A DNA stretch of 64,000 bases from Mizuhopecten yessoensis (lineage: Eukaryota). Position 1 is the first letter of the stretch; every line of letters starts with the position of its first letter. This document shows positions 9,228 through 61,995 of this stretch, piece by piece. The notes below the pieces were generated by a model, which saw only the letters and a list, made by a program, of their open reading frames with translations, was not told where the DNA came from and searched no databases. Both the position numbers and the translations under genes were made by a program. The stretch is from assembly GCF_002113885.1 (NCBI RefSeq), contig NW_018408322.1:1531562-1595561 (forward strand), in the 5' to 3' direction.

Positions 9228-10774
9228 TTCTTTAAAAATGTATATAAACAGCTGGTTGAGCTCGTATAATGGCACAAATACGTTGTTAAATCCGGTTTGA
9301 TTGTGTTTTTTAGTCCCCACAATGGTCAAGGTCAGGTGAAGAGGTAGGAAACACGAAAGCTCACATAGAAAGTACAGATATCAGGACCTGCCATAGAGCT
9401 GCAGTTCAAAGTCCTCCTTCTACATGCAGAAGGCTTCGGAGAAAATCCTCGATTTTGCAGTCGCATCTTATGGCGTCAGGTCTCTTCTTTCACATTGATC
9501 AGGGAGGAATCTGATGATGAGATGTGCTATGTCAAGCATAAACTAATTGCAAAGGAAAAGGAATCACCAGAATTACAAATCCGTAATTTAGTAGGTCAAA
9601 CATAAATCGTTTCAATGATACATCTTACATGACATTCCATTAATATATTTGTTCTGCTTCGATTTAAAGAAATAAATATCAGAAAATGTCTGTTTTCGAA
9701 AAGCCGTTATTACAAAGTTACTACAGTTTTGACCCAAGTAATATTTTCCATCAGTGGAAATAAACATTCAATCTAAGTCGTAAACAGTCTCTGTATGATT
9801 CATTGATCATTCTATAGGCTATTATATGCAAACATCATTTATACCGAAACGAAAATATATACAAGTTCATAGAGTTTGAACTCTCTTGTCATATCAAGTT
9901 AAATGATGGATCTGGCAAATGACATTTAACACGCAAGCTTAACGGCAAATAACCAAGTTATAAACGAAGCTATGAATATGTCAATTTTCCTTTTGTTTAC
10001 TTCATGTCTCCCTATGACTAATCTTAATTAGAAGTACACTTTTATTTGTGAGACATTTCAACGTTTAGGTAGTATCTTAAGTGCCAAAGTTTCGCAAACA
10101 GACAATGCGTTGCAAAGTCTGAGTAGCGGTATATCGTTAGCATAACATGTTATGACTGCTGCTAGATGTGACTGACCCTCATTGACCCAGGTCCGCCAGT
10201 GTACGTCCCGGGTCATTTCAAATATAGCATTGCCAATTACACTTTTTTTTCAACTCCGATGAAGACATCAACTGATTTCCCGAGATGGATTTCATAAGAG
10301 GGCAATATCATTACCTACAATAGCGGTTTATTTGTCAGAAAATTGTCGATTCTCCATCAGCGATCCTCAGATTTTTCTAAGAATAGGTGTAGGTATATTC
10401 GATCAACAGTGACTCTTAAGTCAAATCCCATACCGCAATACATCTTGCTGGTCCTTAAACGCATAGAGTGGTTACTATCGTTCAGTGGCGTGTCAGGGAT
10501 TAATAGCATGGTGTATAGCCTGTTATGATACACTTTTACTGGTGTAGAATACATTAAGCTTCGATAAAGCAACAGGCTACTAGAAAACATCCTGCTCCTT
10601 TCAAGCCCTTCTTACACGAGTCGTAAGCCATCAGTCGACTAAGTGAGATGTTTTTGTGTCGGTTTTTTTTCAATAGTCAATAAACCTTTTTGTACCGGTT
10701 TTGTACACCAAATTTAACATTACTGCTTTTTCCGATACAATTGGAGATTTCAAAAGTATAAAATATGTAGTACC

Positions 10775-11797
10775 AGAAATAGAGGTTACACAACGAGTGG
10801 TTGTTGAATATTGTATTTATTTCACTCGAGTTGGTTAATTTTCAAAAGTTACAAATGATACGAGCTTTAGCGAGTGTCTTTTTTGTAACTTTTGAAAATT
10901 AACTAACGAGAGTGAAATCAATACCATACTCAACAACCACGAGTCGTGTGATCTGTTTCTACCACAATCTCATGATCAGTCGGAAAAAACATACACACGT
11001 GTATTTGTTGACAAGTCTGGCGTAGTGATATGACCCATATGTAAAAAGTCACTCATTAATATTCAAAAACAATTTCTTTTTTTTACAAATTCAATAATTG
11101 TCAAAATTAATGTTTCGGATACAACTTTATGAAAAAAAATATAATAGATGAACGACTTTAAATATTGAGAGTAGCCGAATCTCATTGATTTATATAAATT
11201 AACCACGGACTATATGCGCGTAAGCATATCGTACGAAGTCTGCCACATGCCAAGTGACGAACTTATCGCTGTCAATGTCCAAAACCATAGGCCTATGTTT
11301 CTTCTTGACGGTTCTATGGTTGACGTTTATAGTGAGGTTCAGCCATAGTCAGGCCGTCCAAATAGCGATAACGGGACGTTGGGAGAACGAAATATTTTCC
11401 GACACTGTGGCAGATCTTAATTTGTTTTGGTTTCACGACCTGGACACGCGACGGTGACGTCGAAATGATACCAATCGTCTGTAGCAATTTTGCCTGAAAC
11501 TAGCGATCGAATCTTTAAGTATCATCTTCTTTTAATATTGCCTTAATAACCCCCTTTTCCTCATAACCTCACAAAGTCACCAACATTTGTAGGATGTTGA
11601 TAGCAGACGACGAAAACAAAACAGCATGTGGCAAAAAGCATGTGGAAAAAGTAGTCCCGGTCAAAGTTCATCTTCTCGACCAATCAAAACTCTTGCAGGT
11701 CATATACCACGTGTGGTATATAACTCATATTTATCTAGCAGTCTGCGTGTTTATACAATGATCTGAGAGTGGAATAATACAGCGTATTGTGGTAGAA
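10775..11797. mobile_element. Non-autonomous Crypton-like element with terminal hairpin
   Basis: ~185-nt imperfect palindrome 10775-10960; TTCTACCACAAT (10957-10968) is inverted at the far end as ATTGTGGTAGAA (11786-11797); 4-bp AGAA direct repeat at both ends; CCAATCAAAAC motif near the right end. Superfamily is inferred from architecture only. Confidence 0.6.
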
Positions 11798-12214
11798 TAC
11801 ACCTTATCCTCGGATGTTTCCTATTCAATATATATATAAATCAATGAACAAAACTTTCATTTGAATAAACACTAGCTTATAAAGATGACTCGCAAAACGT
11901 ATATCTGATTGACTCAAGGTCAATGCAGTCTAAGAACAAGTGTTGCTGGGTTACTGGATGTTAAGAAATGCGAACATTTAAATGTAAATGATCAGGCCAA
12001 TACATTCGATACTACCTGATCACCGCTACACCTTTCTTATGGTTCAAGAAATGCTAGCCGAAGCTGGGCACTTTGCTACTCCGGTTTAAGATGTGACTCC
12101 GCACTGTTTGTGTCTCTGTTTAACCGTTTTAATAAATCTGTTTACTTGTTGTTGTTATTGTTTTATGACGCTGACTATCAACTGTGTCCCTGAACAATGT
12201 CGCTTCTTTATGTG

Positions 12215-12444
12215 TTTGGTTTGTTTGTGTTTTACGTCCTGTTAACAGCTATGGTCATTTAATGACGTGCCAGGTGTTTGTGGTGGTTGTGGTGGTGGAA
12301 AGCTGGAGTTCCCGGAGAAAAACCACCAAACTACGGCACGTCCCTGGCGTCTGACACACGTAGGGTCGAACCGTCGACCTAGCGGTCAAGGGCTAGAAGT
12401 AACAGAATGTCAGACGCTTAACCACTTGGCCAACGTGCCACACA
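12215..12444 (-). mobile_element. tRNA-derived V-domain SINE, full length with TSD
   Basis: On the minus strand: A box TGGCCAAGTGG, B box GGTTCGACCC, V-like core GGTTTTTCTCCGGGAACTCCAGCTTTCCACCACC, tail AAATGACCATAGCTGTTAACAGGACGTAAAAC. 11-bp TSD TTCTTTATGTG at 12204-12214 and 12445-12455. Confidence 0.85.
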
Positions 12445-19026: not shown

Positions 19027-19258
19027 TTTTTGGTTTAATTTGTTTGTGAATTACGTCCTATTAACAGCAATGGTCATTTAAGGACGTGCCAGATTTTGGT
19101 GGTGGAGGCAAGCCAGAGTTCCCGGAGAAAAACACCGACCTGCGGCCAGTACCTGGCGACTGCCCCACGTAGGTCTCGAACCCGCGACCAAGTGGTGGAG
19201 GGTTAGTGGTAGCAGAATGTCAGACGCCTTAACCACTTGGCCAAAGCGATCACTTAAT
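19027..19258 (-). mobile_element. tRNA-derived V-domain SINE, full length
   Basis: Same family as 12215-12444; A box TGGCCAAGTGG, B box GGTTCGAGACC; candidate TSD GAGGAAGA at 19019-19026 and 19259-19266. Confidence 0.85.
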
Positions 19259-21492: not shown

Positions 21493-22608
21493 AAGAAATA
21501 ATCAACATAATGTGCGTGCATTATGGTGCAATATATAACGAGGGTGAGAAAATGTTTGCAACTTTTTCGAATGCCGAGTTATATATTCCACAATAATACA
21601 CGCACATAAGTTGATTATTTTTATTCTACCAAGTCAAATGTAACTAGTTGTCAAGTTTTGTTGTCTTATAAGGCGACATGACCTAGATAATTCGATATGC
21701 AAATTAGACGCTGTTCTTTTGCGCGTGCAAGGGACTGGTCTCTGGGGCGTGTGTCCGAGTCACATTACCTGTCGCGCACATAGCAGTAACTGGGGGGCTT
21801 ACAGGGCTAACATGTTCGAATTCACTGAAGGAGGCAATGGCTTCGTCATCCTCCTGACTACCCCAGGGACGTATATTGTCCTCTGGTGTATCGTCCAAAA
21901 GCTGGTGAAGAAAAGCCCGCCTGGTTTCGCCACTGTACATAGACCTCACCACAAATTGTTTGGCAAATTGAGGATTTGGTTGGTGAAAGTCCACAACCCG
22001 ACACAGTTCCCCACAATAAAACACCCTGTCTCTGATTTTTGGTCGTAATACCAAGGAACTTGAACTTGAAGCCATGTTGATTTTTTGAAAGCAGAAGACG
22101 TTTTGCTGACCAGAAACAACTGAACACGTGTAACGTCAGATACGATGTTTATTTCAATCAATCAAACATTGGCACGCTATCGACATCGTTCGTCAAATTA
22201 TGAAATCAACGCTTGGCAGTACATACACACACTGCACACATCGTGAAATGTACGGCACTACCCAGTGAAGTAAAAACAGAAGTAATTAATAATCTACCAT
22301 TTTTTCTTCAGACCTGTACATTTTAAATGTCAATAATTAATAAACCATTTTCACTGCAGGGACCCACATACTTTAGGTCGATAGATCCGTGTAATCTTAT
22401 GAATGGCAGGTCTGTCAGATATTTTAATCCCGCCTGACAGTTATGCTATTTTCGTTAATTCATGATAAAATACGTGGAGGTTGTTGGAACAGCATGCGTG
22501 CGCACTATTTCACATGCATTGGTTATTGGCACGCGCATGGTAAATCGCTCAATAATGCACTCTTTTTAACCAATGAAAACCGTCGTTACATCACAGACGT
22601 GGTAGAAT
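21493..22608 (-). mobile_element. Internally deleted Crypton-like element with terminal hairpin
   Basis: Imperfect palindrome 21496-21620; ATTCTACCA (21623-21631) is inverted at the far end as TGGTAGAAT (22600-22608); ACCAATGAAAAC near that end; retains a truncated minus-strand ORF. Same layout as 10775-11797. Confidence 0.6.
21704..22075 (-). pseudogene. Truncated N-terminal ORF of the Crypton-like element (123 aa)
   Basis: ATG-initiated and GC-richer than its flanks. Beta-strand-like segment (IRDRVFYCGELCRVVDF...FVVRSMYSGETRRAFLHQL) followed by an acidic/Pro-rich linker. Lies wholly inside the element; no recombinase domain remains. Confidence 0.5.
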
Positions 22609-24392: not shown

Positions 24393-25343
24393 AAAATTGA
24401 TTACACGTACACACGGAATACTTATAATAACTTGCAGCACTGGTTGTGGGGAAACCTTCAATGTTGCACATCTTGGTTTAGTGGCGGAGTTTGCCAACCC
24501 CCACTAAGGCTTATGGCCACCAACTAATGTATTTGTTTTACTTTATATATGATAATGCTATGCTGTACTTGTCAGATGTTTGACATCGTCATGTTTGGGT
24601 ATTATTTGTTTGAAAATATATTAAAAGTCACCAAACGGTGACCTTTTTCACTCATATGTTCTTTTGGTTGTTTATGTGACAGGACGGAAAGTGCATAAAA
24701 GGCAGCTAAGCACTTAGCTTAATTTATGCATCTGGAGTCGTGCACATAACCACTTTATTTGAATAAATAAAATTAAGAAAAATAGGTTTCGAAGAGTTGT
24801 CTCCCATGCATAAAAGCTAGGGATAGGAAGAGTTACTCGCCTTGAATTAAGAGCCGAGGATTGTGGGTAATCTGCATTGAGCGCGCCATTGAGAAAATTT
24901 GTAAACAGCGCGCCATTGAGAAAATTTATAAACAAAAAGGTCACACAGTGCAAAACTATTGTGTTAACCATTCTAAGTACAGACCTAGTCTGGTATACCT
25001 TCCGAAGTTTTTAACCCACCCACTTCCTCCCCTCTTCTTCTTTGTGAGAAATGCATTTTAACACAATATCTAAGTGGCGGAGTTTGCCAACCCCCACTAA
25101 GGCTTATGGCCACCAACTAATGTATTTGTTTTACTTTATATATGATAATGCTATGCTGTACTTGTCAGATGTTTGACATCGTCATGTTTGGGTATTATTT
25201 GTTTGAAAATATATTAAAAGTCACCAAACGGTGACCTTTTTCACTCATATGTTCTTTTGGTTGTTAATGTGACAGGACGGAAAGTGCATAAAATTGATTA
25301 CACGTACACACGGAATACTTATAATAAATTGCAGCACTGGTTG
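24393..25343. repeat. Nested direct duplication A-B-core-B-A
   Basis: B (~221 bp) at 24480-24700 and 25073-25293 with 1 mismatch seen; A (~53 bp) at 24393-24445 and ~25290-25343 with 1 mismatch; 27-bp tandem duplication at 24880-24933. Confidence 0.9.
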
Positions 25344-27174: not shown

Positions 27175-28232
27175 GTTTGGTTTCTTTGACCTCTCATTTT
27201 GTTTAACGTCCTATTAACAGCGAAGGTCATTTGTGGACGTGCAGATGTGTGTTGTGCATGCGTGCATGTCTGTATGTGTGCCATAGACGGATCATGTTTA
27301 TGTTGGTGAACTTGCCTCCTTGTGATAGCGCGGATCTGATGCCGACTTTATAGTGCTATCTCACTGAAACACAATGAAGAAGGCACACAGAAAAGCATCC
27401 CACCCCGTCATATTATACTGACAAGGGGTTAACCAGTCGTTGCCATTCCCTTTAAGGGGCTGGTCGGGGAAAAAATGTCATATTTGCTAAAATGGCATCC
27501 ACAAGTTTAAAATACCTTCTTATGAAATATACCGATTCAAATTTTGCTGAAATTCACTCCCTAAGAGTAAAAATTATAATTATATAAAGAAATCCTAAAT
27601 CGTTACCTGGCAGTCTAAACCTCTCAATTGACCCAGATCAGTGATGTAATTTTACCGCATGCGAGTCATCAACAAGGCCAAATGTAAACATCGCGGCGAA
27701 AGAAAAAGATGCATGCAAAAGTCATGACAGGCACGAGGTATCAATACCGTTATATATAACAACAACTTATAGGTAGGAATACTACACTTGAATCATACAT
27801 GACCTTTGAAAAGAATTATTTACGTATAGTATATTGCTGTCTTGTCCGCTAGTTGAGTCCGACATGGCTGATAGAAGGCGTGCTATTATTGTTATCTTCA
27901 CTGCCTCACTTTCGAAACAACCACATAACATATATAAATAGATCTGCGCAAAATTTACGCGGGGCTTCCCTGAAATTTCCGTGGTCAAAACTGGACATTG
28001 CAAGTAGAACTCGACCATCAAACTGCCGTGGTATATCTTTTGGAAGGCCAGAGAACGCATTTAACCCTTTAAATGCTGAACCATAAGCAGAAAAAAGCAA
28101 CAACCATTTTGAAGGACTGTGGTATGTTCCGGCCTGAGGACAGAACACATTGCCTTCTTCACCTGGACGAACACTCAATATTAAAGCCAGAAGTGAGGCT
28201 TTGCAAAGTAAGGTGCTAGTAAATAAAAGGTA
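27175..28232 (-). mobile_element. Meta-domain SINE (family B) split by a later insertion
   Basis: Tail and body at 27175-27455 continue collinearly at 28073-28232 (CCATTCCCTTTAA|ATGCTGAAC..AAGCAG) when compared with the intact copies at 41275-41758 and 61517-61995. Confidence 0.8.
27456..28068. mobile_element. Non-autonomous DNA transposon inserted at TTAA (Kolobok-like or 8-bp-TSD type)
   Basis: Interrupts the SINE; CCCTTTAA occurs on both sides (27448-27455, 28065-28072); weak subterminal inverted similarity (CCTTC....A.ATATACC). Confidence 0.6.
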
Positions 28233-41274: not shown

Positions 41275-41758
41275 TTAGTTTAGTTTTATTTTGTCCAAGC
41301 TAAGGTCATTTAAGGACGTGCCTCCATGTATGTATTGTATGCGTGCTTTCGTTTGAGTGCAGGAGACAGGGTATGTTGGTGTGCCTGCCTCCTTGCGATA
41401 GCGCGGATCTGATGCCGATCACTATCTGATAGTGATATATGTATTTCACTTAAATGCCATGCCGAAGCATTCCAAAAGCCCGGTCACATTGCACTGAAAA
41501 TGGGTGAATCAGTTGTTGCCATTCTCCATAATGCTGGACGTAAAGCAGGGAATAACAGCTACCATTTTTAAACAAAATGTGGTATGTCCCGGCCTCGGGA
41601 CATAACCTATTGCCTTCCTAACATGGGCGAACGCTCAAAAGTAAAGCCAAAAGTGAGGTATTGCCTTGCAAAGCGCTAGGAAATTAAAGATAGTAAGAAG
41701 TAGAAAGAAAGATAAAGATCCCAAATATTGCAATGGGCGCAGAAGATTTATTTTAGTA
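41275..41758 (-). mobile_element. Meta-domain SINE (family B), near full length
   Basis: Collinear with 61517-61995: tail, Meta body, degenerate tRNA region, and a leader that is pyrimidine-rich on the element's own (minus) strand. Confidence 0.8.
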
Positions 41759-61516: not shown

Positions 61517-61995
61517 AAGATCCTATCCATCCACCCTTTTACTTGTTTTCTGTCAACTTCTAACTACCTTTTATTTAATAACGCCTTGCTTGGCAACACC
61601 TCACTTTTGGCTTTAATGTTGATCGTTCGTCCAGGTAAGGAAGGCAATGGGTTCTGTCCCCAAGCCGGGACATACCAAAGGCCTTAAAAATGGCAGTTGT
61701 TATTCCCTGCTTAACGTTCAGTATTTAGGGAAATGACAACAGCTGGTTCACCCATTGTCAGTATATTGTGACCGGGCGGAATGCTGTGCTGGGTTCCTTC
61801 GGCATGGTATTTCAGTGAGATAGGACTATAAAGTCGGCATCAGATCTGCGCTATCACAAAAAGCCAAGCACCCCAACATACCATGTCTCCTGCATACACA
61901 CACGCAAACACGTATACACTACACACATAGAGGCAAGCCTTAAATTACCTTAGCTGTTAAAAGGACGTTAAACAAAATTAGAGCTGAACCAAACC
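61517..61995 (+). mobile_element. Meta-domain SINE (family B), near full length
   Basis: Pyrimidine-rich leader, degenerate tRNA region, Meta-like TTGTCAGTATATTGTGACCGGGCGG..TTTCAGTGAGATAGGACTATAAA, tail CCTTAGCTGTTAAAAGGACGTTAAACAAAA. Confidence 0.85.

Follow-up and report, generated by a model that had tools for sequence, protein, structure and literature searches.

G.A mismatches, an end-docking site and insertion-site shape pick the same strand of a Mizuhopecten yessoensis element, suggesting that Cryptons likely move as one folded strand

The domain DUF3504 stems from the tyrosine recombinase of Cryptons, whose animal members are described as lacking terminal repeats (PMC3212892); Crypton movement has not yet been demonstrated and the printed model is a double-stranded circle (PMC13565253), as far as the available sections of these and the other sources cited here go. 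CryptonA and its non-autonomous derivatives (PMC3212892, PMC5753468, PMC13465315) resemble the element described here in the DUF3504 domain of the coding relative, the lack of terminal repeats and the abundance of derivatives having both ends, and Glomhopper was the Crypton case used for comparison (PMC13465315). The available sections of the published CryptonA accounts describe no hairpin, whereas the present element has a terminal hairpin with GA/GA blocks (tandem G.A mismatches), a splint (an internal complement of its last bases) and a dyad target. The word hairpin and words beginning with palindrom- are absent from the main text of PMC5753468 and PMC13465315, and the latter words are absent from PMC3212892. 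No published description of this Crypton design was found in the searchable literature; Repbase and Dfam texts, subscription papers and supplements may describe hairpins. The internal complementary region of DIRS elements acts as a splint for circularisation. It offers a further likeness, an internal complement of the termini in a tyrosine-recombinase element (PMC13465315); DIRS differ in being retroelements with reverse transcriptase, which none of the single frames of the present families encodes.

Integron attC x attI recombination (PMC5027507, PMC4792948) shares with the present element a tyrosine recombinase, an imperfect hairpin, strand-specific unpaired features and a purine skew, as well as one strand exchange resolved by replication, which is here deduced from genome sequence. 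The unpaired features and purine skew of attC select one folded strand (PMC5027507), and its extrahelical bases are read by the I2 domain and are complete within one site (PMC5027507, PMC4792948). The present element, in contrast, has tandem G.A marks, a core that would be assembled from two ends 830 nt apart, a Crypton recombinase and many degenerate targets. Identity with attC was rejected on the grounds that the crossover context differs from the R and L boxes and the AAC triplet, that the copies are dispersed with no cassette array and that the recombinase is DUF3504 and not IntI; the element works like attC and is not attC. The attP(+) site of CTX phage recombined by XerC (PMC4246890) is likewise a core formed from a folded single strand out of two separated segments, with one exchange and replication, but it uses host Xer enzymes and one fixed dif target, is supplied with the strand by phage replication and is irreversible. 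In the SE elements SE-6945 and SE-6283 (PMC9345347) one strand is circularised as well; these are bacterial and take 6 bp of flanking DNA into the circle, in contrast to the invariant first seven bases found here, and no hairpin is described for them in the available sections of that source.

The window analysed is the whole stretch of 64,000 nucleotides. It contains a 1019-bp non-coding element of which the hairpin is the left end (Table 1), and the limits were taken from an alignment of copies in the 988-Mb host genome, which are alike across exactly this interval and unlike beyond it. The stretch contains 749 first-look candidates, of which 40 were scored, and at least 237 copies of the element were counted. 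Comparison of the two ends identified no terminal inverted repeats in the element, and in 60 copies the lengths of apparent target duplications were not above those of shuffled pairs; a DDE-mobilised MITE was rejected, since neither terminal inverted repeats nor a target duplication is present.

Table 1. Features of the element and its target site (window positions)
Feature	Position	Strand	Evidence
Non-autonomous element, most likely of CryptonA type	10779..11797	+	fixed ends; 237 exact left and 183 exact right ends; longest stop-to-stop frame 77 aa; no duplication
Left arm of terminal hairpin	10779..10865	+	fold, pairing, consensus
First seven bases, invariant, mismatched in fold (T.T, G.G, G.T)	10779..10785	+	consensus, families
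GA/GA site 1, left CGAG, opposite 10940-10943	10794..10797	+	pairing; in consensus
GA/GA site 2, left CGAG, opposite 10907-10910	10827..10830	+	pairing; in consensus
GA/GA site 3, left CGAG, opposite 10871-10874	10861..10864	+	fold, pairing, 94-hairpin set
Apical loop, four bases	10866..10869	+	fold
Right arm of terminal hairpin	10870..10958	+	fold, pairing, cross-family comparison
Splint, internal complement of the last 12 bases of the element	10957..10968	+	cross-family comparison, junction fold
Short perfect palindrome near right end; L061 has one too	11702..11721	+	sequence
Right end, complement of splint	11786..11797	+	copy ends, families
Left half of target site	10770..10778	+	target profile
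Target-derived spacer (7 nt) and right half of target site	11798..11812	+	target profile

A coding relative (L061) was found through its left end, 1.5 kb from a DUF3504 match, and is a 2943-bp element resembling the window element at both ends (80% over the first 299 nt and 72% over the last 196 nt). Its recombinase gene lies on the opposite strand, is frameshifted and apparently intron-broken, and matches PF12012 with an E value of 5e-24; the R, K, HxxR, H and Y motifs are found in separate pieces of this broken gene and together in the intact 502-aa recombinase frame of family B (L062), one of the families described below. Because L061 combines both ends of the 1019-bp element with a DUF3504 recombinase gene, the latter element is a non-autonomous Crypton, and the features of that class were found: both termini in common with a DUF3504-encoding element, the catalytic R-H-R-Y in the partner protein, no terminal inverted repeats, no target duplication and, as in animal members, no terminal direct repeats. 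The sequence evidence makes it most likely a CryptonA, with which the DUF3504 match and the QRICH1 match (the sole match of the family B recombinase in a PDB sequence search) agree; single-sequence structure prediction for the same protein gave a pLDDT of 34. The original prediction had drawn a parallel with sites recognised by a tyrosine recombinase, and this class of mobilising enzyme is borne out by the DUF3504 gene between the same ends in L061, a single broken copy that points to a candidate mobiliser. A DIRS-like retroelement was rejected, the coding relatives being 2.1-2.9 kb long with a single recombinase gene and no reverse transcriptase. The host genome contains 150 scored DUF3504 matches; several multi-copy families among them have near-identical members and open frames of 344-645 aa, which suggests recent Crypton activity.

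The hairpin had been proposed from the sequence to hold three regularly placed sites at which CGAG faces CGAG, and all six CGAG words were found where they had been placed, with the G at element positions 17, 50 and 84. Sites 1 and 2 lie on a common pairing axis, while site 3 is reached through a 2-nt bulge in the window copy, a 1-nt bulge in the consensus and none in L061. Compared with shuffles using a folding program, the hairpin reached a z score of -10.1 on the plus strand and -11.4 on the minus strand, with 0 of 200 shuffles as stable; the predicted energy is equal on both strands (-51.3 kcal/mol) and the folding model shows no strand difference. CGAG opposite CGAG in DNA was found by NMR to form sheared G:A pairs with cross-strand stacking, according to the available part of PMC10085684. 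The G.T wobbles, which had been taken as a further mark of the plus strand, did not hold up as such: that at 10833 is one of the changes found in the window copy alone (six substitutions and an additional base), with A-T in the consensus, and that at 10857 is a register effect. Since the consensus hairpin holds two G.T and two A.C pairs, the wobbles have no strand bias.

The consensus was built from 52 copies, consisting of 30 top BLAST matches and 22 copies picked by their right end, after three duplicate loci, three truncated or rearranged copies and two copies without hairpin had been left out. It does not give a perfect hairpin and keeps all three CGAG/CGAG sites. Intact CGAG/CGAG was present among the 30 top BLAST copies in 27 (site 1) and 28 (site 2) and among the 22 right-end-picked copies in 16 and 11, respectively, and site 3 was GA/GA in 58/94 hairpins of a set in which altered copies are overrepresented. 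The expectation that GA positions would be better conserved among copies was reversed: counted against the consensus among the 22 right-end-picked copies, 14/172 GA positions (8.1%) had changed versus 74/2845 non-CpG stem positions (2.6%). Part of this excess comes from GA-to-TC changes of two bases, after which the arms are complementary, and the faster change fits copies that decay after insertion, as expected for inserted copies that are not under selection.

Forty longer stretches around the 150 scored DUF3504 matches were examined, and a hairpin end was identified in nine recombinase-coding families (A, B, C, D, E, F, H, I and J), the hairpin scan finding none in several of the 40 stretches. 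Read on the hairpin-first strand, the tandem mismatches of the nine families were GA/GA in 14/18, GA/AA in 1/18 and TC/TC in 0/18, so that GA/GA outnumbers other tandem mismatches across families, versus 0/9 GA/GA or TC/TC among the tandem mismatches of 18 control hairpin clusters unlinked to a recombinase (Fisher p 1.5e-4, in which independence is overstated as the families are related). A GA/GA site lies at element position 48-50 in seven families (A, B, C, D, F, H and I), and the full form of family B has three GA/GA sites. Families C, F, I and J carry CGAA/TGAG or CGAG/CAAG, in which the purine mismatch is kept and the word is not. Family E adds none to the 18 mismatches; a CGAG/CGAG core is present in one of its copies only, 2/5 copies have a common repaired right arm and the rest are collapsed or rearranged. 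The proposal that the mismatches are family features and not decay is thus sustained by their retention in the consensus and their recurrence in the arms of nine tyrosine-recombinase families.

Families A, B, D and E carry the recombinase gene antisense to the GA strand, C, F, H, I and J carry it in sense orientation, and families E and H have sister proteins and similar hairpins with opposite gene orientation. GA polarity therefore tracks the element ends and not the message, which argues against an mRNA role. On a protein tree confined to recombinases of the host genome the orientation switches only about twice; as the nine families are related and orientation changes are few, the family counts are not independent. 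One locus (L113) tried as a family E copy with its hairpin on the other side proved to be a separate element beside a truncated copy and was left out. In L022 and L023, which sit on a single contig and may stem from one event, the stretch of body from the splint to the right end is turned around, from about 1690 onward, so that the hairpin points the other way relative to it; such an inversion could be the source of the opposite gene orientation in E and H. Within the window, positions 21495-21625 hold a second hairpin with a plus-strand CGAG/CGAG block followed by a tract resembling the splint of families E and H, which is probably another non-autonomous Crypton family.

Repair of the mismatches was followed with pattern matches that were assigned to arms copy by copy. 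The diagnostic pattern gave 28 genome-wide matches (17 left-arm site 2 repairs, 10 right-arm C-to-T changes and 1 insertion) and the mirror pattern gave 19 (3 right-arm repairs, 14 left-arm A-to-G changes and 2 rearranged or truncated copies); at site 2, 17 left arms with the GA-to-TC repair stand against 194 exact unrepaired matches. A contig of an independent run matches the repaired arm over 56 bases with no difference, so that assembly errors alone do not account for the repairs. On a tree of 71 bodies the 13 GA-repaired copies correspond to 13 changes (shuffled mean 12.2), and L082 and L110 have a common repair within one starred three-copy clade. Repairs of A.C pairs, placed on a tree of 92 rows, fill two starred (well-supported) clades, with 7/11 and 5/7 copies. 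GA-to-TC repairs recur, yet in what is a weak test they formed no amplified subfamily. Amplified repair events numbered 2/8 for A.C versus 0/17 for GA-to-TC, a contrast that is not significant (p 0.09) and that may, weakly, fit a model in which transposition selects for GA/GA but not for the A.C pair. Repair in family A favours the left arm (17 vs 3 or 4, p 0.003-0.007), and the few repairs in families B, E, F and H run in both directions; for this reason the left-arm bias was not retained as proof that folding is specific to one strand and was given less weight.

The complement of the last 8-13 nt occurs once, at most 4 nt from the end of the right arm, in all eight families with a known far end (8/8), with a rough chance per family of 2e-6 to 7e-4. 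In the predicted fold, joining of the ends lengthens the stem by the end duplex (-60.9 vs -48.7 kcal/mol), and families A, B, D, E and H have identical T.T and G.N mismatches at the first four bases. The crossover would therefore sit in a mismatched spacer between two paired arms, with the first seven bases of the element (Table 1) as the predicted overlap region that would be carried along with the exchanged strand. Naturally occurring junctions in which a right end abuts a left end head-to-tail, matching the predicted circle junction, were found in families A and B (left flank of L007, and L041). Comparison of contigs from four public DNA runs with the window gave no empty site and, among the joints listed, none of a circle; in such contigs circles are indistinguishable from tandem copies. 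Two further copies are unusual around the splint: in L008 another palindromic element, with a related hairpin in L077, is inserted directly behind the splint of a family A copy, and L094 is a 200-bp mini copy comprising the left arm, loop, partial right arm and right end, without the right half of site 1 and the splint.

Reconstruction of 59 empty sites, from which one tandem junction was excluded, gave a dyad of AT-n3-ATA, eight spacer bases and TAT-n3-AT (A-4 in 40, T-3 in 48, A-2 in 53, A+1 in 48, T+8 in 51 and A+9 in 37 of the 59), with a best dyad score of 0.98 and 0.50 for the next axis; in family B, T-3, A-2 and T+8 were present in 10/10 targets. All 59 junctions follow the first spacer base on the GA strand. 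The product expected from the other strand, with the first seven bases of the element after the right end, was present in 0/29 right-end-picked copies, the best being 5/7 bases in one. Since two exchanges across a non-matching spacer are expected to yield two daughter types, these counts support one exchange that would be resolved by replication, provided that repair does not always favour the same strand. Tyrosine recombinases cut the top strand where the left arm meets the spacer; in loxP the spacer is 8 bp long and the cut lies one base inside it. The sites of these enzymes consist of two inverted arms with a spacer of 6-8 bp (PMC4792948) and the enzymes leave a 3'-phosphotyrosine and a 5'-hydroxyl (PMC5357621), as given in the available sections. 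From this standard recombinase geometry, on which the assignment rests, and the junction edge, we infer, independently of the mismatches, that the exchanged strand is the GA (plus) strand. A single exchange with the strand fixed relative to the element, the hallmark sought for attC-type behaviour, is thus what the genome indicates for these 59 junctions and 0/29 other-strand products. At L062 about 24 bases of flanking DNA recur on the two sides of the copy, unlike at other copies.

The G.A mismatches, the docking site and the shape of the insertion site all point to one strand, an agreement suggesting that Crypton movement likely involves a single folded strand. Judged from genomic sequence, the GA strand probably folds, brings its ends together and enters the target through a single strand exchange, and it is likely that the three CGAG/CGAG blocks were selected as marks by which the plus strand alone can form a continuous rod. 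The single-stranded plus strand would fold with tandem sheared G.A pairs preserving helical stacking at positions that would be T.C loops on the minus strand, and the right end would then pair with the splint behind the hairpin, bringing both ends together on one duplex. The joined ends would form the recombinase core with its mismatched spacer; one exchange would release or copy out a single-strand circle, and one exchange would join the strand into the target one base inside the spacer, the junction being resolved by replication. In the double-stranded form the mismatches may also serve to avoid a perfect palindrome, and the G.A pairs may either be contacted by protein or act through stability only.

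The main rival that remains to this folded-strand reading is a double-stranded circle with one exchange on a duplex site, as in VGJ phage and the strand-biased SE elements, in which the hairpin would serve copy-out, replication or cruciform extrusion and GA/GA would only make a long palindrome tolerable, favouring one cruciform arm. One-strand exchange with double-stranded circles is known from VGJ phage (PMC4246890) and SE elements (PMC9345347) in the available sections, such a circle is assumed by the printed Crypton model (PMC13565253, in the part available) and would account for the single junction type, and the junction of family A alone has a weak inverted repeat of about 7 nt. However, the complement of the end directly behind the hairpin in 8/8 families and the conserved mismatches opposite the first bases in A, B, D, E and H are left unexplained by it, and we consider this rival rather unlikely. 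It is improbable that the CGAG words are direct-repeat protein sites on double-stranded DNA whose facing in the fold is a by-product: most sites do have the same word and the spacing of 33-34 nt is near three helical turns, but the words lie exactly opposite their partners though the arms differ between families, and C, F, I and J keep the purine mismatch without the CGAG word on both sides.

Tandem G.A forms in RNA too, and weak Rfam matches to microRNA precursor models were obtained, both of which would suit a structure that acts as RNA, either as a precursor-like hairpin or in escape from double-stranded-RNA silencing. These matches are, however, far below the gathering score (best 58.7 bits vs 140) and occur on both strands, GA polarity is independent of gene direction and RNA-labelled runs contain only 0.06-0.17 of the words, making an RNA role more improbable still; a microRNA precursor or other Rfam family was rejected, there being no match at gathering score. 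Least credible of all is that the mismatches are neutral relics of a decaying inverted-repeat element. The faster decay of GA positions than of the stem among inserted copies would suit such relics, but the consensus and cross-family counts contradict them, the same mismatch, strand and position 48-50 recur in seven families, and the families keep the mismatch even though inter-arm copying erases GA/GA in about 8% of copies at one site.

If the folded-strand reading is extended, animal Cryptons would be eukaryotic single-strand transposons with a tyrosine recombinase, a G.A strand-identity code, a splint-built core and one exchange into a loxP-shaped degenerate target, a generalisation that is offered tentatively as a real possibility. 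The strand-identity code read in synapsis would then consist of sheared G.A blocks set at a constant distance from the crossover, and the splint would build the recombination core only in the folded strand. If true, integron-like chemistry would have been reached independently in animals, and this would suggest that the Crypton-derived ZMYM, QRICH1 and KCTD1 descend from binders of structured DNA. Substrates are now defined (end, splint, hairpin and target consensus, together with a predicted strand and cut position) and the same genome holds young families with intact recombinase frames, so that Crypton movement is directly testable; the hairpin and splint also provide a rule for locating Crypton ends. 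New here are the coding partner with the same ends, the contrast in gene orientation, the rule of a site at position 48-50, the analysis of repairs and the use of target geometry to assign the strand.

Other repeats are present in the window. Dispersed repeat families were found at 12214-12330, 19033-19140, 27186-27455, 41298-41710, 61547-61995 and elsewhere, one of which has very high depth in public runs. Positions 24480-25293 contain an identical 221-nt direct repeat whose copies are 593 nt apart and which could be a local duplication or an assembly effect.
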